From a virus (taxonomy: Duplodnaviria; Caudoviricetes), in the IMG/VR virus record IMGVR_UViG_3300029305_002995, positions 1 through 64,000 of that record: DNA of 64,000 nt; one strand, 5' to 3'. Positions 5,498 through 50,574 of the stretch are shown piece by piece. The position numbers and the translations under genes were made by a program. How positions within the stretch are numbered: the stretch's first letter is position 1; every line of letters starts with the position of its first letter. The notes under the pieces were generated by a model that was given only the letters and a program-made list of their open reading frames with translations, made no database searches and was not told the DNA's origin.

Positions 5498-6241
5498 CTA
5501 AAATGTAAGTACATTATTAGTTGTTTTATTGGAATTTTCTTCTATTTTATCCATATCTACTACATTATCATTTTTTGAATCTGAATCAGTAGTATCATCT
5601 GGTGTAATAATAGAGAAATCCACTACAGGTACACCATCTTCAAGATTTTCATTACAAGATTGAATTTCAACTATTGTACCAATAGGTTTTTCATTAGAAA
5701 CCAATTGTAATTTACCATCTTTATAAGAAATGTCATCTGCTTTTTCTGATTCGATAAAATCAGCCAAATCGTTAACTGCATTTAATCTTGCATCTATTTC
5801 TAAAATACGTCTATCTAATGGTGTTAAAACATTGTCTGGGACAATATCAGACCATGCAGAAATAGAAACGATAGTTAAAAGGAAATCATCCGTTTTTCTT
5901 ACACGCTGTACACTGTCTCCTTCGACATTCATATCAGCTCTGATAAAAGATAAATGTAATTCAACCTTTCCAGCTTCTTGTGTAATGTCAGTATCTATAG
6001 GCAAAATATATTTCAAAAATTCTTCTTCTCTTTCGTCAGATAATGTTAAAATTTCTGTTTTATATTTTCTACTTACAGGTCTAAGATACTCCATTACAAC
6101 AGTATATTGGCTCATATCTAAACCATTGTAAAATGGCTCAACTAAAAAATATAATGTATCAACAAGTTTACTTCTCTGCATGATTCGTTGCTTAATCGGA
6201 GCAGATAAAGTATTATTGTGATTTACTAAAATTACATACAT
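5498..6241 (-). CDS. BppU-like baseplate protein
   Basis: LPIDTDITQEAGKVELHLSF resembles the BppU N-terminal fold; tail context. Confidence 0.5.
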   Translation of the reverse strand: MYVILVNHNNTLSAPIKQRIMQRSKLVDTLYFLVEPFYNGLDMSQYTVVMEYLRPVSRKYKTEILTLSDEREEEFLKYILPIDTDITQEAGKVELHLSFIRADMNVEGDSVQRVRKTDDFLLTIVSISAWSDIVPDNVLTPLDRRILEIDARLNAVNDLADFIESEKADDISYKDGKLQLVSNEKPIGTIVEIQSCNENLEDGVPVVDFSIITPDDTTDSDSKNDNVVDMDKIEENSNKTTNNVLTF

Positions 6242-6291
6242 TGGAACTCACCTCGCATTTGATTTATTATGTATTACCGTTGTCTTTTGTT

Positions 6292-7566
6292 TTAAGTTTT
6301 TTCAACTGTTTCTTCGGTAATAGCAATCATCGTAGGTGCTTCAAGTTCTTCTATTCTAATTTTGAAGTTTTCAATAGTTTCCAAAATCATTTTAAAATCT
6401 TCATCTGTAACATATCTACCCGCTGAAAAATCCCACTTACCATCGGCAGTCATATATACATTTGCTCCTGCTGGCACTTTAATACCTGCACCACATTTAA
6501 AAGTATCGTCAGTAACAAAAGCATCGGTAATTTGAAAAGTATAGCCAGTATTAACTTCGACAGAAGATAATTTATCAGAAGTAATAGTACCCATTGGAAC
6601 AAAATTACCACCAATGCTTTCTACTACATTTTTTGTATGAGTGTAATAGAACAAAGCGTTATCTTCATCTTCTCCTTCACGAACACCAGTATCACCATTA
6701 ACGTATGACTTGGCAAGTAATACATTATTTGCAGATTCCAAAACAGATTGAGCAGCAGCATTTTCAGAATTTTTAGCATTTAATTCAGATTGTAATGCCT
6801 TTTGCTCAGATGCAAGTGCTTTAGCTTCTGATTCATCAGCATTTAATTCAGAAACTAAAGCCGCATCCTCAGATTCTTTAGCTGCTTTTTCAGACGCTAA
6901 AGCTTTTTGCTCAGAAACTAAAGCTGCTTCTTCTGATGCTTTTGCTGCTTTTTCGGATGCAAGTGAAGCTTCTTCTGATGCTTTTGCTTTTAATTCTGAT
7001 TCTTTAGCTGCTTCTTCTGACGCTTTTGCGGCAGCTTCTGCTCGTTTTGCTTCTGTAATAACATAAGTGTATTCGGCATTTGCCTTTACTAATAAATCAT
7101 TTAAAGCATTGTATTCGTAAGAAGATGTAATATCGCTATTATCTATTGCAGATTCTATTACATTGAAACCAATTAACTTAGTAGATAGAATCTTGGAAGT
7201 ATTTAACATCGCATCTTCTGCTTCTTCAAAAGGAACAGTAGCAGAAATTGCATTATATTCACTAATATCCAGAATAACTAAATCTGCATAACATCTACCT
7301 ACTTCTGCAAGCATCTGTTCTGTCAACTCAATTAAAATTTTTCCATCATCAGTAATTTCACAAGTATTAAAAACACCTAAATTATCTGGTTTTCTAAATC
7401 TAATATAAGCATAATTGTTTTCAACAGTAATAGGGTAAGGAGAACCTTCATTATAACAGCTAACTAAAACGAAACGAGACAATCTATCATTCTGCTTTGC
7501 GTTAATTTGAATATAACGTGTATCGTGAAAATCTACTTTAATTTCTTTCAAAATTGTTAAACTCAT
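6292..7566 (-). CDS. Upper baseplate protein (BppU/DUF2479-like N-terminus) with KASE repeats
   Basis: AKQNDRLSR, RKPD and IELTEQMLAEVG motifs; ASE heptad repeats; start moved to MSLTI after GGAGGGAGG RBS. Confidence 0.65.
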   Translation of the reverse strand: MSLTILKEIKVDFHDTRYIQINAKQNDRLSRFVLVSCYNEGSPYPITVENNYAYIRFRKPDNLGVFNTCEITDDGKILIELTEQMLAEVGRCYADLVILDISEYNAISATVPFEEAEDAMLNTSKILSTKLIGFNVIESAIDNSDITSSYEYNALNDLLVKANAEYTYVITEAKRAEAAAKASEEAAKESELKAKASEEASLASEKAAKASEEAALVSEQKALASEKAAKESEDAALVSELNADESEAKALASEQKALQSELNAKNSENAAAQSVLESANNVLLAKSYVNGDTGVREGEDEDNALFYYTHTKNVVESIGGNFVPMGTITSDKLSSVEVNTGYTFQITDAFVTDDTFKCGAGIKVPAGANVYMTADGKWDFSAGRYVTDEDFKMILETIENFKIRIEELEAPTMIAITEETVEKT

Positions 7567-7602
7567 AATATATTCCTCCCTCCTACAAAAATTAATCAAA
7601 GA

Positions 7603-8277
7603 TTATAAGCCATAACCTCTAATATCTTCGACAAAGCTATGGTTTCTCAAATGATTTTCGTAGGATTCTTGAATAATTTGCATAGCAATATTTACTTCGC
7701 CATTAGTTAAGTCGTTTTCTTCGATAATACGTTCATAATCTTTGTGCATTTTAAAAATACGATTGAATTGTTCTCTGGTTGCTGGATAACTTTGGTCTGC
7801 CACTCGACCAGAGAAATCAATAATCGTATTACGTTTGTTTTCTATAAGGATTGAAAGAGTGTCTGCATTATTCTTATCTAATTTATTGCTTAATTCACGC
7901 ATCAGTTTATCTTGTTCTGCACGTTTCTTATCGCTACTGGTGATATGGTCATTTACCTCTTCTATCCACTTATCACGTTTGGCAATATTGTCTTTGCTGT
8001 AATGTTGGTCAAAATCAGCAAGTAACTCATTAGTTTTTTGAATTGTATCTGCCATTTGACGATATTCATCTAACAAATCAGATACTTTTCCCAATGCTTC
8101 ACGTTCTTTCTTTTTACGAGCAAAATACTTTCTAACTTTTACAAATTCTGGAACAACTTTTCCTTTAAACTCCAAAAATTCCCCTATGCCTTGCATAATG
8201 AAAAAAGCTAAAACAAGCCCTATAGCTAATTTTGTTGGTAAATTCAAATATTCAATATAACCCAGCATATATAGCAC
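7603..8277 (-). CDS. Membrane-anchored coiled-coil protein (holin-associated)
   Basis: One N-terminal hydrophobic helix; C-terminal YE..I.EN.LTNG motif; adjacent to the endolysin. Confidence 0.5.
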   Translation of the reverse strand: MLYMLGYIEYLNLPTKLAIGLVLAFFIMQGIGEFLEFKGKVVPEFVKVRKYFARKKKEREALGKVSDLLDEYRQMADTIQKTNELLADFDQHYSKDNIAKRDKWIEEVNDHITSSDKKRAEQDKLMRELSNKLDKNNADTLSILIENKRNTIIDFSGRVADQSYPATREQFNRIFKMHKDYERIIEENDLTNGEVNIAMQIIQESYENHLRNHSFVEDIRGYGL

Positions 8278-8319
8278 CTAAACCTTTCATTTTAAAAGGC
8301 ATTTCGTGTTACAAAAGCC

Positions 8320-9174
8320 TTATTTAGTTAAATATTGACTTGAAACAAAACCTTTATAAGTTATATCGTTTTTTATGTAGACCACATAATACCAATTAAC
8401 ATTTCTAAAAGCAGTATAGTAGCCATAGCATTGTACTTTAGTACCTTTAGGAATAACAGTTAAAATGCCTTTATGTTTTCCTGCTCCTGCTCTAAGATTT
8501 AAAGCGTCTGTAGTTTTATAAGTTCCAGACAAAAAACGTGAAAAAGATTTCGCATAGTCAATTTTAAGTGAAATAGGTTTAGTTTTAATAGCTGTAGTAA
8601 TATTAGATTGTTTATTTGGTTTACTCGTATTATTTTGCTTATTAATAATTGATGTTTCGTCATCAATTACAGCAGGATTATAAATAAAACCTAAAAATGT
8701 ATAAGTGGAGTTCATACCCCAATTACCATTTCCTTTTAACCTTGTCTGATTCCAAAATGGAGTTTTTGAACCCCATCCGCTTTCAGATGTGTACACTTCC
8801 TCATCACTAATCACTTTTTCAACAATAGCAACATGACCTGCACCATCAGAGCCAGAAAATGTAGAACCCTTTTTCCAAACCATACAAGCTCCAACTTTAG
8901 GTGTTTGTCCAACAGATAATCCTTCACCTTTAAATTCAATAAAACGTTCAGCGTTAACAGGTCTTAAATATTTACAAAAACCCCATTGCCCAATCTCATT
9001 GAATCTTCCATAAGCAAAGCCTACACAATTGGAGAGTACATTACAATCTGTATCAGTAGGACTACCTGTTATTGCATCAGACCAACCACCTTTAGCTTTG
9101 GTAATATAATACTTATTACCTGCTTCTGGTTTTTTTGTTCTCATTTTGAACTCAGAACTTCTTACTATAGCCAT
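8320..9174 (-). CDS. Endolysin, CHAP catalytic domain plus SH3b wall-binding domain
   Basis: NCVGFAYGRF (catalytic Cys), GHVAIVE (His), ESGW; C-terminal ALNLRAGAG...GFVSSQYL. Confidence 0.9.
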   Translation of the reverse strand: MAIVRSSEFKMRTKKPEAGNKYYITKAKGGWSDAITGSPTDTDCNVLSNCVGFAYGRFNEIGQWGFCKYLRPVNAERFIEFKGEGLSVGQTPKVGACMVWKKGSTFSGSDGAGHVAIVEKVISDEEVYTSESGWGSKTPFWNQTRLKGNGNWGMNSTYTFLGFIYNPAVIDDETSIINKQNNTSKPNKQSNITTAIKTKPISLKIDYAKSFSRFLSGTYKTTDALNLRAGAGKHKGILTVIPKGTKVQCYGYYTAFRNVNWYYVVYIKNDITYKGFVSSQYLTK

Positions 9175-31818: not shown

Positions 31819-32178
31819 CATTTAACATATATACTTTCGTATATGATTAGACTATATCATCAACCTTACATCAAGGTTGTACTGCGCTTCGATTTAAAGG
31901 ATTCTCACCTACTGAGATTTTCACTCAGCCCTACTTCTATTGTGGAATTTCACCACCTATGGAATAGTCGTTAGACCTTCAATTATATATCAATATAATT
32001 GCTTGGCACAGGATTGTCGTATAACAATATAAAGTTACTTAGATTTTCCCTGTTAGCATAGTTTTTCATCGTCATTTCCTACGATTACAATAGCAAACTA
32101 CACACCCTATATTTATAGGTTCACAGTATTTTCGATATGTATTACTACATAAAGGAGCTAATTAAAGACCGTTAGTTA
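31819..32178 (-). mobile_element. ORF-less group I intron (360 nt) in major tail protein gene
   Basis: P AACAGGGAAA, Q AATCCTGTGCC, R TCTAACGACTA, S ATGATATAGTCT; P1 GAGT/GCTC with U-G; P10 TAATT/AATTA; terminal G at 31819; splicing restores the frame. Confidence 0.92.
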
Positions 32179-32200
32179 ACTCATTTTTATTAAAAGCCAT
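32179..32200 (-). CDS. Major tail protein, exon 1 (22 nt)
   Basis: AAGGAGG RBS then ATG GCT TTT AAT AAA AAT GAG T; ORF 31061-31828 lacks an RBS of its own. Confidence 0.85.
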
Positions 32201-43510: not shown

Positions 43511-44857
43511 TTATCTATTTCTAATTGGTGTGTAAATCACATCTGTTAACCCATCTTCATAGTCAAAAACAAATGATTTACACTGTCTTTTAGAATTATA
43601 ACCCTTATCTGCACTCCATTTACTTCTTGCGCTAATGGTAGGAAGTCTTTGGATTCTAATATTGTTTTCTTCTAAAAGTAATTGTTCTGTATGTAAATGT
43701 TGTAGAAACACTTCTACGGTTTCAGCTTGCGACCAATACTGTCTTGCTTCGTCAGCGATTATAGCAGGTAATTTCGCTACTTTACCATCGTGGGCAAAAC
43801 ATAATAAAGTGTTTCCATACAACTGATATTTTCTTGCTTTTGGTGTGCTATCTACCCAGACATTATCATCATGTCTAAACCATGCTTCAATATATTTAGC
43901 CAATTTAAAACCTGTAACTTCATCATGGTTGCCCATAACATAAATTACTTTGACAAATGCTTGCTCTTTTAAAATATCAATAGCCTTAATAGTCATAGCG
44001 CACAATCTTTCATAAGCATCATAATAATGCAGATGATTGTCTTGTGGAGTACCTTTAGTGGTAGTACCACTTAAATTATCTCCATTCAACATATCTCCAC
44101 CAATACAAAAGATTATTTCTTGAAAAGTATAATGAGCTGTTCTGGATAAAACATCTTCAATAACATGAAAGAATAGCTTTTCTGCAATATCACAATTGTA
44201 TTCATTACCCGTAGTCAAAATAGAAGCCTGTAGATTTAAATGTAAATCTGCAATGTCTATTAACAATAGTTTATCACCATTTTTATAATCACTACGATAA
44301 GTTAATTCTGGTAAAGAATATTTTCTATCCAACCTGTCAAAGAAAGAACTAATCTTTTGTAAAGATAAATCTTTTTCTTCTATTGGCTTTATAGTAATAT
44401 AACTTGCATACAAAGTACAAATTCCATCTTGTTTTGAAATAACTTGTCTAATCGTATTTCTTGCACTTACAATTTTCCAGAAATTAGGGTCAAAACCATG
44501 AGCTTGTAGAATATACTCTGGATTTTTAGACTGTTCTTCGTTCATAACAATTAATTTACTACTTGAATAAGAACCATCTTTATTAATCGAAGTTTCAGAA
44601 TAAGACTTTAAATCCATAACAGCATCATTCTGTTTTTCTTTTTGTGATTTAAAATATTCAGCCACAAATGCACCGCCAAAAATTGATGCATTAGCTTTTC
44701 TTAAAGTTTCGGAAGAAACTGGTAAATGATATTGTTCGCAAATTTCATTCCAATCTAAATCAATCACATTGTTTTTCTTATCTTGAATAAGTTGAATACA
44801 TTTTTCGTATTCTTCTGCGGTTAATCCAGACTTTGTAATTTCGTCTAAAAGATTCAT
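43511..44857 (-). CDS. Calcineurin-like metallophosphoesterase
   Basis: DLH, GGD, GNHD, AHDG and HLH motifs. Confidence 0.8.
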   Translation of the reverse strand: MNLLDEITKSGLTAEEYEKCIQLIQDKKNNVIDLDWNEICEQYHLPVSSETLRKANASIFGGAFVAEYFKSQKEKQNDAVMDLKSYSETSINKDGSYSSSKLIVMNEEQSKNPEYILQAHGFDPNFWKIVSARNTIRQVISKQDGICTLYASYITIKPIEEKDLSLQKISSFFDRLDRKYSLPELTYRSDYKNGDKLLLIDIADLHLNLQASILTTGNEYNCDIAEKLFFHVIEDVLSRTAHYTFQEIIFCIGGDMLNGDNLSGTTTKGTPQDNHLHYYDAYERLCAMTIKAIDILKEQAFVKVIYVMGNHDEVTGFKLAKYIEAWFRHDDNVWVDSTPKARKYQLYGNTLLCFAHDGKVAKLPAIIADEARQYWSQAETVEVFLQHLHTEQLLLEENNIRIQRLPTISARSKWSADKGYNSKRQCKSFVFDYEDGLTDVIYTPIRNR

Positions 44858-44890
44858 TGATATCAGTCCCTTCACTAAAATTCAAATTAT

Positions 44891-44966
44891 TGGAGCTTAT
44901 GACCCGACTCGAACAGGCGACCTGCTGATTACAAATCAGCTGCACTACCAACTGTGCTACACAAGC
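44891..44966 (-). tRNA. tRNA-Thr(UGU)
   Basis: Full cloverleaf, anticodon loop TTTGTAA, TTCGAGT T-loop, encoded CCA. Confidence 0.9.
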
Positions 44967-45038
44967 AAATAAAAAACAGACGCAAGCATAAAAACCTGCG
45001 TCTGTAAGCGTATATCTTAAAACATACACCCCAATTAC

Positions 45039-45113
45039 TGGAGGATATGGCGTGACTTGAACACGCATAAGGCAAATTAACAGTTTGCTGCCTAACCGTT
45101 AGGCTACATATCC
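45039..45113 (-). tRNA. tRNA-Asn(GUU)
   Basis: GCAAA-CTGTTAA-TTTGC anticodon arm, TTCAAGT T-loop, CCA. Confidence 0.85.
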
Positions 45114-45230
45114 ATATAAACCCTACGCCCGAAGAACATTATATTAAATATAACTTGAACTTTTACCGAATCAGCAGAAAGATAGCTAATCAAACCACTT
45201 AAAACGTAAACTTGTCAAATAGAGTAGCAC

Positions 45231-45319
45231 TGGCGCAGAAGGTAGGATTTGAACCCACGGTACGTTGCCGTATCATCAGTTTTCAAGACTGACTCCTTAA
45301 ACCACTCGGACACTTCTGC
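45231..45319 (-). tRNA. tRNA-Ser(UGA)
   Basis: TCAGT-CTTGAAA-ACTGA, long variable arm, G73, CCA. Confidence 0.92.
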
Positions 45320-45352
45320 GTATTTATCTTTTACAATCTTTCTTTGCTGTAC

Positions 45353-45439
45353 TGGTGGGGATGGTGGGAGTTGAACCCACACGAAGTTTCCCCCAAGGGA
45401 TTTTAAGTCCCTTGTGTCTGCCTATTCCACCACATCCCC
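45353..45439 (-). tRNA. tRNA-Leu(UAA)
   Basis: AGGGA-CTTAAAA-TCCCT, long variable arm, A73, CCA. Confidence 0.92.
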
Positions 45440-45446
45440 AAATACA

Positions 45447-45524
45447 GGTGGAGGTGGGATTTGAACCCACGTTGTCCAACCAGCCTTAGTAATATAGGAC
45501 GTTTTTCACTAAACTACATCCACC
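45447..45524 (-). pseudogene. tRNA-like element (His-like body, aberrant anticodon arm)
   Basis: GGTGGATG acceptor, D arm, intact GTGGG-TTCAAAT-CCCAC T arm; 19-nt anticodon loop; no CCA. Confidence 0.6.
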
Positions 45525-45715: not shown

Positions 45716-46075
45716 TTACAAGAAAGAATTTCCTACCCAACGTTTAGGTTTAGGAAAATCTTTTAAAAGTTTATCTTTGTAATATCGTGTAATAGTAGCT
45801 TTTAGTTTATATCTATCATTTGCAATTATCTCGGTTTGATTCAGATAATCAAAAGAATCACGCTCTGGAAGATAAGTACATTCAAAATTAATACCCTTAT
45901 ACAACTTAATACAAACATCAGTCTTTTTATCTGCGGTTGCCAGAAGTTGTCTAAATGCTTCTCCAAAAGCATCATATATTTTTTCAAGAACAGGAATGGT
46001 AATTCCTAATTCTTTAGCTACAATTCTTACGATTTGCTTTTTATCGTATGTAACTAATTTCTTAGATTTAATCAC
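45716..46075 (-). CDS. HU/IHF-like DNA-binding protein
   Basis: KKQIVRIVAKELG N-terminal helix and I.L..G..FE...PER arm; sits next to the RNAP gene, like SPbeta yonN. Confidence 0.6.
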   Translation of the reverse strand: MIKSKKLVTYDKKQIVRIVAKELGITIPVLEKIYDAFGEAFRQLLATADKKTDVCIKLYKGINFECTYLPERDSFDYLNQTEIIANDRYKLKATITRYYKDKLLKDFPKPKRWVGNSFL

Positions 46076-46270: not shown

Positions 46271-47029
46271 TTACAACTGATTTTGTCTATACCTTTGTAC
46301 TCTAAGTCGAGTCATTTCACGCTTATGTTCTATAGCGCAAGCTTCACATCTATGCACTTTATTATCTTTCACATTGGTAGTAAACCATTCACCGCAATCA
46401 ACACACTGAACATCTTTGGTATGCAATTTTAGATTTCCACTTAAATTCTCGTAGATATAATCACCATAACATAACCATAAAATCATTTTATGTTTGCTGT
46501 CTTTAACAACATATAAAAGCTTGACTAATATATCTGCAACTTCTGAATTGGAATATCCAAACTTAGATAATTCAGTTTGAATTTCTTCTACAATTCGTTT
46601 GTATCTTAATTCTTGTTTTAATTGAGAATTTTTAAGAACATCCGCAGAATAACATTTATCCACCTGTGAAGCATTATTAAGAGCAAACTTATATTTATTA
46701 CTCAATTCATAATACTTAACAATTAATGGGTCTGTACTTTCTTTGATTAACTTACCTTTGTCTGTAAAATTCACAATACACTCTATATCTGGATTTCGCA
46801 TAAGCAAAGTGTAATCTATAGGGTTAACTTCAAGTTTTCTAAAATTAATTCTTGGATTAGGAATTATATTTTCAAGCTTATTTACAAAGCTATTATTAAC
46901 TGGAAATACTTGATGTTCTTCTTTGTCTTTAGCATATTTAAAGAAATGCGGTAAATTATTATTTGTGAACACACTAATTTGTGCATCAATATTTTTAGGT
47001 CGTGTTGGTTTATACAATGTCTTAGCATA
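46271..47029 (-). CDS. yonO: YonO-like RNA polymerase, exon 3
   Basis: Joining gives ENNFVID-YAKTLYKP; LPHFFKYAK motif; C-terminal Zn ribbon. Confidence 0.85.
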   Translation of the reverse strand, partial: YAKTLYKPTRPKNIDAQISVFTNNNLPHFFKYAKDKEEHQVFPVNNSFVNKLENIIPNPRINFRKLEVNPIDYTLLMRNPDIECIVNFTDKGKLIKESTDPLIVKYYELSNKYKFALNNASQVDKCYSADVLKNSQLKQELRYKRIVEEIQTELSKFGYSNSEVADILVKLLYVVKDSKHKMILWLCYGDYIYENLSGNLKLHTKDVQCVDCGEWFTTNVKDNKVHRCEACAIEHKREMTRLRVQRYRQNQL

Positions 47030-47419
47030 CTTAATTATACCCTCGGTTTCCCGATATTTATTAGGGGAATAGACTATATCATTACCCTATGTCAATTCAT
47101 AGGCTTATTATTAAGGGATTTCTCCGTAGTTAGCACTTCGATTTGAGGGGTTTTCACCCAGCAAGTATTTCATCTTGCCCCTACTCCTGTTGCTGAATTT
47201 CACAGCCTATGGGATAGTCGTTAGACCTTCAATTATATATCAAATATAATTGCTTGGCACTGGATTGTCATATAACAATATAAAGTTACTTAGATTTTCC
47301 CTGTTAGCATAGTTTTTCATCGTCATTTCCTACGATTACAATAGCAAACTACACACCCTACATTTATAGGTTCACTAACTTATTCGATATGTATTACTAC
47401 ATAAAGCGACTATATTTTA
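47030..47419 (-). mobile_element. ORF-less group I intron (390 nt), RNAP intron 2
   Basis: P AACAGGGAAA, R TCTAACGACTA, S ATGATATAGTCT; P1 CGAT/GTCG with U-G; terminal G at 47030; in-frame junction. Confidence 0.9.
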
Positions 47420-47722
47420 ATCGATAACAAAATTATTCTCCATACACAACAATTTAATAATATTAATAGCGTTTTGTTTTTCTTCTTCTGTTCCAGAAAT
47501 AAATACTTCACTATTCCATATTTTTGAAATATTGTTACTATATACACCTATATTACCACCTATAAAAGCAGCATTTAAACCATGATAAATAGATTCACTG
47601 TTTAACTGCACTGGCAATGCTTTTTTCATATTGTAGTACAAAGGCACAATATTCTGCATATTACGTTCCGCTACGTTAATTAGCGTCTTATCTGCTACTA
47701 CAAGGGACTTGTCTCCATCCAC
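47420..47722 (-). CDS. yonO: YonO-like RNA polymerase, exon 2
   Basis: Begins VDGDKSL; contains IGVYSNNISKIWN. Confidence 0.88.
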
Positions 47723-48744
47723 CACGATACTTTACATATCGCAGACTATATCTTAACCATATCTTTTCAGACTTAGGTTCTCAGCACTTCCACATAATGA
47801 ATGTCACATTATATGTACTCTACTTGGTTACTCATATAACACCATTTAAGGTTTTATATTATCCTTTCGATAGTCGTTTGATTTTCGTAAAATAAAAATT
47901 CAATCATTTTATATATTTTTTAATGCTATAATGTTTTTTATACAAAGAATTATTTCTAATTGCTCTATTCAATTGACACCGTACAGTTTCTACGTTATCT
48001 GTATCAGCTACACCAATATCAATTAAATATTGACAACATGGTACAATATAATCAAAACTTTTAACCAACTCTCCATCGTAAAATAAATCAACTGGTGTAC
48101 TACGACCATTTTGTGTTGCAGGTCTACCTTGTTTTATTTTAGACAGCAATTTATCATTTTGGTATTTCTTTGACAATTTATCATTTCCATAATTAGGATT
48201 TTTCTCGCCATGATAATCTGGTCTATTACAATTACTATATCTAACATTATCAGCATGAGTCATCCATTCTAAATTATCTGCTTTAGGATTTGCTCTATTG
48301 TAATCTTTGTGATTTACTTCTGGTAAATTATTTGGATTCGGTACAAAAGCAATGGCAACTAATATATGTACTGCTACGCTACGATAACCGATATTAGGCA
48401 ATCGCAAAGTACACACAATATATCCATCTGCATTATATCTATGTACACACTCTTTTCCATTACAAATAATCTTTCCAAAATTAGATACAGTTAAGTTTAA
48501 TCCTTTATAGCAAATATTTTTATATTGTTCTTGCAATTATAACACCACCTATTTTTTTTATAAAATGATGGATTATTTTTATTTTACGCTTAACACAGGA
48601 TTGCCATAATTAGTTTCCCTGTTAGCACATTACCAAATCGTCATTTCCTACGATTCCAAAAATGTGTAATGTACACCCTATATTTATAGGTTCACTGAGT
48701 TTTATATCTCTATGTTTCCATAGAGTTTGACATTTTTACTGGTC
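47723..48744 (-). mobile_element. Group I intron (1022 nt), RNAP intron 1, in the catalytic motif
   Basis: P1 TTTGAT/GTCAAA with U-G; P AACAGGGAAA, Q AATCCTGTGTT, R TCAAACGACTA, S AAGATATAGTCT; P3 CTCAGTG/TGCTGAG; terminal G at 47723. Confidence 0.93.
47904..48536 (-). CDS. Intron-encoded HNH homing endonuclease (I-HmuI-like)
   Basis: VHILVAIAFVPNPNNLPEVNHKDYNRANPKADNLEWMTHADN; enclosed by a 14-bp P6a stem CGTAAAATAAAAAT/ATTTTTATTTTACG. Confidence 0.9.
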   Translation of the reverse strand: MQEQYKNICYKGLNLTVSNFGKIICNGKECVHRYNADGYIVCTLRLPNIGYRSVAVHILVAIAFVPNPNNLPEVNHKDYNRANPKADNLEWMTHADNVRYSNCNRPDYHGEKNPNYGNDKLSKKYQNDKLLSKIKQGRPATQNGRSTPVDLFYDGELVKSFDYIVPCCQYLIDIGVADTDNVETVRCQLNRAIRNNSLYKKHYSIKKYIK

Positions 48745-50574
48745 ATCAAATTGGAGAACTTTGGAAATTAAATCCTTACAGCTTGTATATAAAGCGTCAG
48801 TACAAAACCATCTTCTAATACTTTGCTGTAATTCTTCATTTTTGTAATAAGCAAGATTTTTTCTAATAGGATGTTCCCTATATAAATGCGGACTTCGCAA
48901 ACAATCTAATTTTTCATTTCTTCTAAACAACCAACAAAACACTTCGCCATCATTCAATAATCCATCTGGATTTTCTATACCCTTAAACCAATACTCACAC
49001 GCCGCATAAAAGTCTGGTAGAATAAAAGTATATTTACCATTGATTTTCAACTTACCTGCTTTAAATCGTTTAATCATACTATCTTTTAATTCTCTAAGAT
49101 AGGATTTTACATATTCATCATTTAACAAATTAGGATATAGTTCAATGGATTTCTGAAATGGTGTTTTATCTAAATTATATGGGGTAACTCCAAATGCTGC
49201 TTTAATTGTATCTACAGAAGAAGTTAAATTTTTTAACGTACAAATAGAATCGTTAGCAATCTTTAAGATTTCTTCATCAGATATATCAGTCAAGCTCTGG
49301 AGCATCTGATAATTAATTGTTGCATTTTTAATTCTATCTTCTTCTGGATTAGTAAAACCTGCTGTACAACCATATCGTTTATATAATTCTTTATAGTTAT
49401 CCCAAGAATCGTAATATTTCCAGAGTTTAAATTGACTTTTCGTAAAGATAACTTCAATATCTTCTTCTATTACATTATGTTCTTGACCATAAATATCTTT
49501 AATTACTGGCGAACAATTATTTTCAATAATGAACTCTCTGAAATTAAACACTCCAAGTAAGCCTTTAACCCAAGGTAAACGAACCATACGATTTTTACCC
49601 ATCTTAGGCAACATCATACCTGCACCATCTGTATGTGTAATTACAACATTATTAGATACTCTGTTAATTGAATAATCCACATCATCTACTAAATCGAAAG
49701 TACCAAACACTTCGGTTTCAAAATCATCAATCACTATTGTTTTATCGATATTAAATTCTTCCCATACGTCAGTAGCGGAATTTGCCAAAGCAAGATAAGC
49801 TAAATGCTTATTTGGATTATTTCCACCTCTACGATTAATTTCATCTACAGTCAAACCACACATAATTGTTTTTTCATGCTGTTTCCAAATAGATTCTTTT
49901 ATAAAAACAACTTTCTTGGTTCTAATTTGTCCAGCAGATGAAGTAAAATAGATATATTTTTCGCCTTCAAATTCAAAGCCATGATATATCAAATCTTTAA
50001 TAATATCGAAATAATACACTTGAATTACCATGAAATCTTTACATAATTCATCTTGTTTTGCTTGAATAGTTCTGGTAAACGAAGATTCAAAAACAGAAAT
50101 AATATCATCATTTGAAATTTCATTTTCTCTAACTTTACGAATATGATGTTTTCCTTTGGATTTAATATTAGCTTCAACCTTGACAGATAACAGTTTTAGT
50201 AGAGCTTCTTCTACGTTGTGAATTGCATTAGTTTTTACTGACATTAAATCTCTGAGCTTTTTATATTTCTTTGCCCAGAACACAACATCTTCATTTCCAC
50301 CCCATAAAGCATAGTCAAATTTATCTTTAACAATATCGCTAAAGTCATTTTCATCTAAACCATATAGATTTAACTTTTTCTCAATTTCTTTATATCCAAC
50401 TATGATACGCTTAACTTCACCATTAGATTTTGTAATATAGCCACCTTTTTTAATTTGATTCTTTTCTTCTCGTAAAGTGTGAATCTTTTTATGTAGCCTT
50501 GCTTCTTTGTTGGTGTAAAAATAGCCTGTATCTATAGAATATATTTGTAATTGGCGGTCTAACAACGCTATCAC
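48745..50574 (-). CDS. yonO: YonO-like single-subunit DNA-dependent RNA polymerase, exon 1 (spliced ~960 aa)
   Basis: SSAGQIRTKK, HTDGAGM, RLPWVKGLL, TKSQFK, NYQMLQ, LRSPHLYREH and LQFD|VDGD double-psi-barrel motifs; start may be TTG at 50565. Confidence 0.88.

Follow-up and report, generated by a model that had tools for sequence, protein, structure and literature searches.

The DNA considered here (the window) is the first 64,000 nucleotides (nt; positions 1 to 64,000) of IMG/VR virus record IMGVR_UViG_3300029305_002995, a metagenome-derived contig of 111,157 nt from an uncultivated gut phage, with a CheckV completeness of 81%. On its minus strand lies a region which is very probably one gene, interrupted by a pair of related mobile group I introns of IA-like type and encoding a YonO-type RNA polymerase (RNAP), a single chain with two barrels; it is the only yonO-type copy in the record. 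YonO of phage SPbeta is a single-chain two-barrel DNA-dependent RNA polymerase, in which an aspartate triad is essential and which transcribes the SPbeta late operon (PMC5467207). As listed by open reading frame (ORF), the region comprises four pieces: a 612-residue ORF (50574-48736) ending in LQFDDQ, the 210-residue ORF of Table 1, an ORF (47725-47417) that starts with (M)VDGDK and stops after NFVID, and a last ORF (47017-46271).

A yonO-type polymerase gene in three exons

Joining the three exons (Table 1), the length of each being divisible by three, yields 964 codons with a terminal stop only and a protein of 963 residues; this joining in frame was proposed, at about 960 residues, in a preceding sequence-only reading of this DNA. 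That reading also placed both junctions, and its boundaries are exact: when the joined protein was aligned (MAFFT) to YonO and to its homologues from Clostridium phage D-1873 and Psychrobacillus phage Perkons, no gap fell across either LQFD/VDGDK or NFVID/YAKTLY, and dozens of homologues without introns give tblastn matches to the three exons that follow one another with no codon between them (for example at 6001-7857, 7858-8160 and 8161-8916 of locus L007). The tblastn comparison draws on a family set of 78 loci (16 GTDB genomes, 54 IMG/VR records, and 8 GenBank phages or plasmids).

The assignment to the YonO family, likewise proposed before, is supported by all three exons, which are 47%, 50% and 34% identical to SPbeta YonO (tblastn E 4e-127 for exon 1) and which cover PHROG 8308 (847 positions) in series, with exon 1 spanning positions 2-550, exon 2 551-644, and exon 3 645-846; exon 3 also matches PHROG 37506. 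Exon 1 is 52.5% identical to its counterpart in D-1873, 42% identical over the full length to that in Perkons, and 65-66% identical to the closest homologues from metagenome-assembled genomes and IMG/VR, whilst exon 2 is 79% identical to that of L007. Since the E-values of the exons against homologues range from 0 to 1e-53, a chance match is excluded. Exon 1 additionally matches the Pfam family RdRP (PF05183; 33.9 bits, cut-off 23.8); a sequence search of the PDB with exon 1 returned only chance matches to ankyrins and no sequence-related solved structure.

The triad itself (D610-V-D612-G-D614), which aligns with DNDGD of YonO, is complete only once intron 1 is removed, the intron lying directly after the first aspartate, as the sequence-only reading had it. 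An alternative to splicing is that the gene is fractured, with its pieces translated separately and assembled as a split polymerase. A GTG at 47725 could indeed start 'MVDGDK', a TTG at 47017 lies within exon 3, and public records give such pieces as separate coding sequences (CDS). However, the GTG falls on the final three intron bases, with no Shine-Dalgarno sequence before it, the break would part three aspartates which bind one metal, and the homologues are single-chain; moreover, the intervening sequences are complete ribozyme cores with guides that track the exons (see below). We regard a split polymerase as very improbable.

The public annotations also bear on an expectation that accompanied the sequence-only reading, namely that automated annotation would call the gene a pseudogene. 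The public records do not show this: annotators have divided such genes into two CDS (phi3T_60/59 in phage phi3T; yonO_1/yonO_2 in Goe11/Goe14; CBC4_RS13860/13855 in a Clostridium botulinum plasmid).

Both insertions have group I cores

Two further claims of that reading, that both insertions are group I introns and that both have the canonical borders, with U before the 5′ splice site and a terminal G, are sustained by the presence of P1 and the P3-P9 core in both, and by covariation. The terminal G is found in both window introns and in all 13 relatives from YonO genes. P1, P3, P4 and P7 of intron 1 covary with 14 related introns. P3, a pairing across a span of 240 to more than 900 nt, has 7 base pairs (bp) in all 15 introns of the related set, with nine variants of its sequence; compensatory alternatives occur among the related introns in P7 (GACUA/UAGUC vs GACCA/UGGUC) and in P4 (ACAGGG/UCCUGU vs ACUGGG/UCCAGU). 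A formal count was made over six ORF-less relatives, with 500 shuffles and slid controls. Paired cells amounted to 97% (80% in shuffles) and pairs changed on both sides to 22 (10.2 in shuffles), neither value being reached in any of the 500 shuffles; in the slid controls 29-47% were paired.

The guide sequences follow synonymous changes in the exons. For the intron 1 site the pairing is UUUGAU/GUCAAA in the window and UUCGAU/GUCGAA in L025; for the intron 2 site, AUCGAU/GUCG is replaced by AUUGAU/GUCA in both L026 and L029. Such tracking is hard to explain unless P1 is in use. Intron 2 also contains the classical group I sequence elements P, Q, R and S (AACAGGGAAA, AAUCCAGUGCCAAGC, AACGACUAUCC, GAUAUAGUCU). 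Hairpins P7.1 and P7.2, characteristic of subgroup IA, are located between the 5′ strand of P7 and the 3′ strand of P3 in both introns, and one of them (helix 7) covaries. We class both introns as IA-like, at the level of subgroup IA as a whole, with P7.1 and P7.2 assigned by hand. Similarity to the SPbeta bnrdE and bnrdF introns, which have been studied by experiment, is limited to the conserved core (E 0.02-0.5), and speaks for class membership only.

Other kinds of intervening element were considered. Stop codons in all frames of both insertions exclude an intein, and a group II intron is excluded by the group I core. The Rfam alignment places the 5′ strand of P3 on a local stem, a placement which was rejected on the covariation. 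Between the P3 5′ strand and J3/4-P4 the whole intron family has two covarying hairpins (on the minus strand of the window, the pair lies at 48690-48625 in intron 1 and at 47370-47307 in intron 2). Inside the second hairpin of the pair is a further one, whose loop AGGAAAUG is invariant. Rfam misaligns this region, and we matched the two-hairpin layout to no named group I subgroup.

Table 1. Position of the polymerase exons, the two introns with their helices, and associated genes in the window
Feature	Position	Strand	Remarks
Exon 1	48745-50574	-	1830 nt, 610 codons; ends LQFD, which includes the first catalytic Asp
Intron 1	47723-48744	-	1022 nt, group I; last base G at 47723; splits the triad between D and VDGD
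Intron 1 P1	48750-48745 with 48731-48726	-	exon UUUGAU with guide GUCAAA; 6 contiguous bp
Intron 1 P3	48699-48693 with 47786-47780	-	located helix
Intron 1 P4	48622-48617 with 48600-48595	-	located helix
Intron 1 P6a	48588-48575 with 47899-47886	-	perfect 14-bp stem closing a 675-nt loop
HNH homing-endonuclease ORF	47904-48536	-	210 residues; TTG start after AGGUGG; entirely within the intron 1 P6a loop
Intron 1 P7	47875-47871 with 47748-47744	-	located helix
Intron 1 P7.1/P7.2	47866-47791	-	placed by hand
Intron 1 P9	47741-47736 with 47730-47725	-	located helix
Exon 2	47420-47722	-	303 nt, 101 codons; starts VDGDK and ends NFVID; second and third catalytic Asp within VDGDK
Intron 2	47030-47419	-	390 nt, group I, no ORF; last base G at 47030
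Intron 2 P1	47423-47420 with 47410-47407	-	exon CGAU with GUCG; 4 bp
Intron 2 P2	47403-47398 with 47393-47388	-	located helix
Intron 2 P3	47379-47373 with 47135-47129	-	located helix
Intron 2 P4	47304-47299 with 47264-47259	-	one A.A mismatch
Intron 2 P6/P6a	47258-47225	-	located helix
Intron 2 P7	47219-47215 with 47076-47072	-	located helix
Intron 2 P7.1/P7.2	47206-47146	-	placed by hand
Intron 2 P8	47103-47086	-	located helix
Intron 2 P9	47066-47040	-	located helix
Exon 3	46271-47029	-	759 nt, 252 codons and stop; starts YAKTLY; CxxC...CxxC at C-terminus
HU-like gene	45716-46075		follows the polymerase gene; Pfam Bac_DNA_binding E 4e-4, below cut-off

Intron 1 has, besides the helices in Table 1, a P2 with a GAAA loop, a P6 and a P8, and an in-frame UAA two codons past the 5′ splice site; in intron 2 the first three bases are themselves an in-frame UAA. 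The protein encoded in the P6a loop of intron 1 matches Pfam HNH_3 (27.6 bits, cut-off 24.8) and PHROG 959/59 'HNH endonuclease' (E 8e-24), and is 52% identical to the ORF of the same-site intron of L025.

Observations that weigh against two active introns

In a check suggested with the sequence-only reading, a focused Infernal scan with the group I model (Rfam RF00028, Intron_gpI) recovered intron 2 over the full model at 32.9 bits (E 9e-7). Both introns lie below the gathering score of 50 bits, intron 1 at 14.1 bits, where the 675-nt ORF loop splits the core and lowers the score. These sub-threshold scores are among several observations which tell against a gene interrupted by two working introns. 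Rfam at its gathering threshold found only tRNAs in the whole window, and a 5-kb scan by E-value found no intron. P10 is weak, consisting of 3 non-adjacent bp in intron 1 and of 4 bp, unconserved in relatives, in intron 2, and was not used as evidence. In the middle of the intron 2 P4 is an A.A mismatch (ACAGGG/UCCAGU), whilst P4 is fully paired in all 13 scorable relatives of 14 (L066 is not scorable), and this mismatch could lower the activity of intron 2. Finally, the contig is metagenomic and incomplete, which bears on the viability of the phage. A 47-kb Rfam scan of five relatives likewise found no intron; since Infernal filters and ORF loops hide this intron family, the blank broad scans are not evidence against introns.

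The P4 mismatch and the low Rfam scores, together with the lack of an endonuclease gene in intron 2 and a contig that is only 81% complete, would also fit a decaying gene. In that case splicing would have been lost from one of the insertions or from both, intron 2 being the likeliest candidate, and this copy would be a pseudogene, the phage itself being defective or a fragment. Against this, all three exons are open, without frameshift or internal stop, and 54-79% identical to homologues; all other core helices of intron 2 are intact, and its P1 still fits its exon; and phi3T, which is viable, has an ORF-less intron at this very site. When five pairs flank it, one internal mismatch usually makes a helix weaker without destroying it. 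We consider decay unlikely, and prefer a gene interrupted by two introns, both of which, judging from their cores and guides, probably splice in vivo.

The mismatched P4 of intron 2 is a mix of the two covarying states found in relatives. A further group I intron of the same phage, located on the minus strand at 31828-32182 near the start of a gene of the structural (tail) region, scores 54.5 bits with Rfam, above the gathering score, and is 88.7% identical to intron 2 over 274 nt. Its guide sequence and its P3 differ from those of intron 2. The near-identical tract suggests gene conversion between the two introns; such conversion may be the source of the P4 mismatch.

Two recurrent intron sites in yonO-type genes

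The intron 2 site is filled in 19 other loci of the family set. In phi3T the insertion is of 400 nt and without an ORF; in Goe11, Goe14 and B. rugosus it is of approximately 1290 nt and carries a GIY-YIG ORF; and in IMG/VR contigs GIY-YIG or LAGLIDADG ORFs are found, the same-site homologues including L026-L029. Phi3T, Goe11 and Goe14 are viable laboratory phages. The phage-plasmid p1 of C. botulinum BKT015925 (NC_015417.1) has an ORF-less group I intron of 367 nt at this site (L024:5195-5561), its yonO-like gene appearing in the annotation as a pair of hypothetical proteins (CBC4_RS13860 and CBC4_RS13855). In L027:7586-8602, L026:3231-4467 and L005:5648-6937 one and the same ribozyme occupies this yonO site with differing ORF content: introns of this type have either a LAGLIDADG ORF, placed after the 5′ strand of P7, or a GIY-YIG ORF, placed in the P5 loop, or no ORF. 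Comparison of these introns indicates independent acquisition of endonucleases by one intron lineage.

Around the aspartate triad, introns occur in one GenBank phage and in another six IMG/VR contigs, the three insertion points falling within a stretch of 11 nt. The exact intron 1 site of the window is shared by L025 and L066, each with an HNH ORF, and by L042, which has no ORF; 5 nt upstream there are introns in L027, L046 and L028 (between CAGU and UUGAU, guide GCUGU); and 6 nt downstream there is one in GenBank MT835481 (between DFD and GD, HNH). The introns at this hot spot carry an HNH ORF, an unclassified ORF or none, those at the intron 2 site a GIY-YIG ORF, a LAGLIDADG ORF or none. The gene in MT835481.1 (L023:2088-3035 for its 948-nt intron) is a distant YonO-like one (31% identity) with a canonical ADFDGD; its intron has the HNH ORF in the P6a loop and a 3′ half that resembles intron 2 of the window. 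Only 3 bp of P1 were found for it, and the DFD/GD junction rests on the protein frame alone.

L027, L046 and L028 have introns at both sites, as does the window. This bears on the possibility that the arrangement is an assembly artefact, i.e. a chimeric contig, as might be suspected in a record derived from a metagenome. Both ends of each insertion coincide to the codon with an exon junction, isolate genomes and independent contigs have insertions at the same sites, and three contigs have both introns, so that we give an artefact almost no credence.

Two IMG/VR loci that are approximately 96% identical, L025 and L045, differ by the clean presence or absence of a 984-nt HNH intron between FD and VDGD (L025:6822-7805 vs L045:6822). 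Five synonymous differences lie within the 15 nt upstream of the insertion site, a cluster which looks like a signature of co-conversion or of immunity to cleavage. The polymorphism speaks for mobility of the intron and, with the clustered changes, indirectly for the intron-free triad DNA as the putative cleavage target of the HNH endonuclease.

Proposed mechanism

In the mechanism that we propose, the yonO-type gene would be transcribed as one pre-mRNA, and ribosomes would halt at the in-frame UAA just inside each intron, leaving the ribozymes free to fold. An in-frame stop near the 5′ splice site is a known aid to splicing, keeping ribosomes out of the ribozyme (PMC3984707). In each intron the guide would pair with the last bases of the preceding exon, with a U.G wobble in P1, and free guanosine would attack; the intron would then be released at its terminal G and the exons ligated. 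Only the doubly spliced mRNA would encode the 963-residue enzyme with the full triad, the unspliced mRNA giving instead the 612-residue product with one of the three aspartates. By analogy with SPbeta YonO (PMC5467207), the late genes of the phage would depend on this polymerase and on both splicing events.

The HNH endonuclease encoded in the P6a loop of intron 1 would cut the intron-free triad DNA of co-infecting relatives, and intron 1 would spread by this means; intron 2, the endonuclease gene of which was presumably lost or never present, would persist as a passenger. Since exon 2 is of 303 nt and in frame, its skipping between the two related ribozymes, of the kind reportedly seen in Twort orf142, would give an in-frame but catalytically dead polymerase lacking two of the three aspartates. 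A more elaborate role for the layout, in which the HNH endonuclease is a weapon against the active-site DNA of co-infecting intron-free relatives, on the model of PhiPA3 gp210, and an isoform without exon 2 modulates or times late transcription, seems doubtful to us.

Relation to known systems

The gene resembles SPbeta yonO (Forrest et al. 2017, PMC5467207) in the full-length homology described above, the DxDGD triad, the HU-like gene downstream, and its position upstream of the structural genes. It differs in that SPbeta yonO is intron-free, and in approximately 125 extra N-terminal residues, which are common to the relatives from Clostridia and Psychrobacillus. Parallels for intron 2 are the unannotated homologous introns at its site in yonO of phi3T, SPR, Goe11/Goe14, BUCT083, SPbetaL3-L7, B. 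rugosus and BKT015925 p1. They share the site (between NF[VT]ID and [YF]AKTL), the start UAAA..UAGUCGC and the end with P9; unlike the window gene, each of these genes has one intron, with a GIY-YIG ORF or none, and no intron in the aspartate triad.

For intron 1 a precedent is the gp210 intron of phage PhiPA3, an HNH-bearing putative group I intron in the gene for an RNAP beta subunit, the endonuclease of which cuts the gene of a competitor (Birkholz et al. 2024, PMC11620839). That intron too carries an HNH ORF and lies right after conserved aspartates of a phage two-barrel RNA polymerase gene; however, the enzyme is multisubunit, the phage is a Pseudomonas jumbo phage, and the motif is a different one, in the beta subunit, whilst HNH cleavage in the present case is only predicted. 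Conserved motifs of phage enzymes are a classical location for group I introns. In 1999 Landthaler and Shub reportedly described three group I introns in orf142 of Staphylococcus phage Twort, and exon skipping is said to have been reported. The likeness with orf142 lies in several related IA-type introns in one phage gene, and the difference in the host gene. Phage genes with more than one intron have been described in Twort and in Bastillevirinae (PMC11878797).

Literature searches for an intron in yonO found no paper which mentions one, and a review of SPbeta lists introns only in bnrdE and bnrdF. The arrangement is an ordinary mobile-intron arrangement that recurs unannotated across the yonO family, in a host gene for which the literature lacks such a description. 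It leaves the understanding of group I introns and of YonO unchanged. Its practical consequence lies in annotation: records routinely present a yonO-type gene as two or three CDS with no stated relation, and the active-site motif is invisible in each fragment. With two recurrent intron sites over 78 loci, yonO also lends itself to the study of intron homing, and of interference between phages, at the active site of a polymerase in a natural setting.

Five tRNA genes (44894-45523, minus strand) come immediately after the HU-like gene on its downstream side, followed by a 454-residue metallophosphatase-like ORF (43511-44875).

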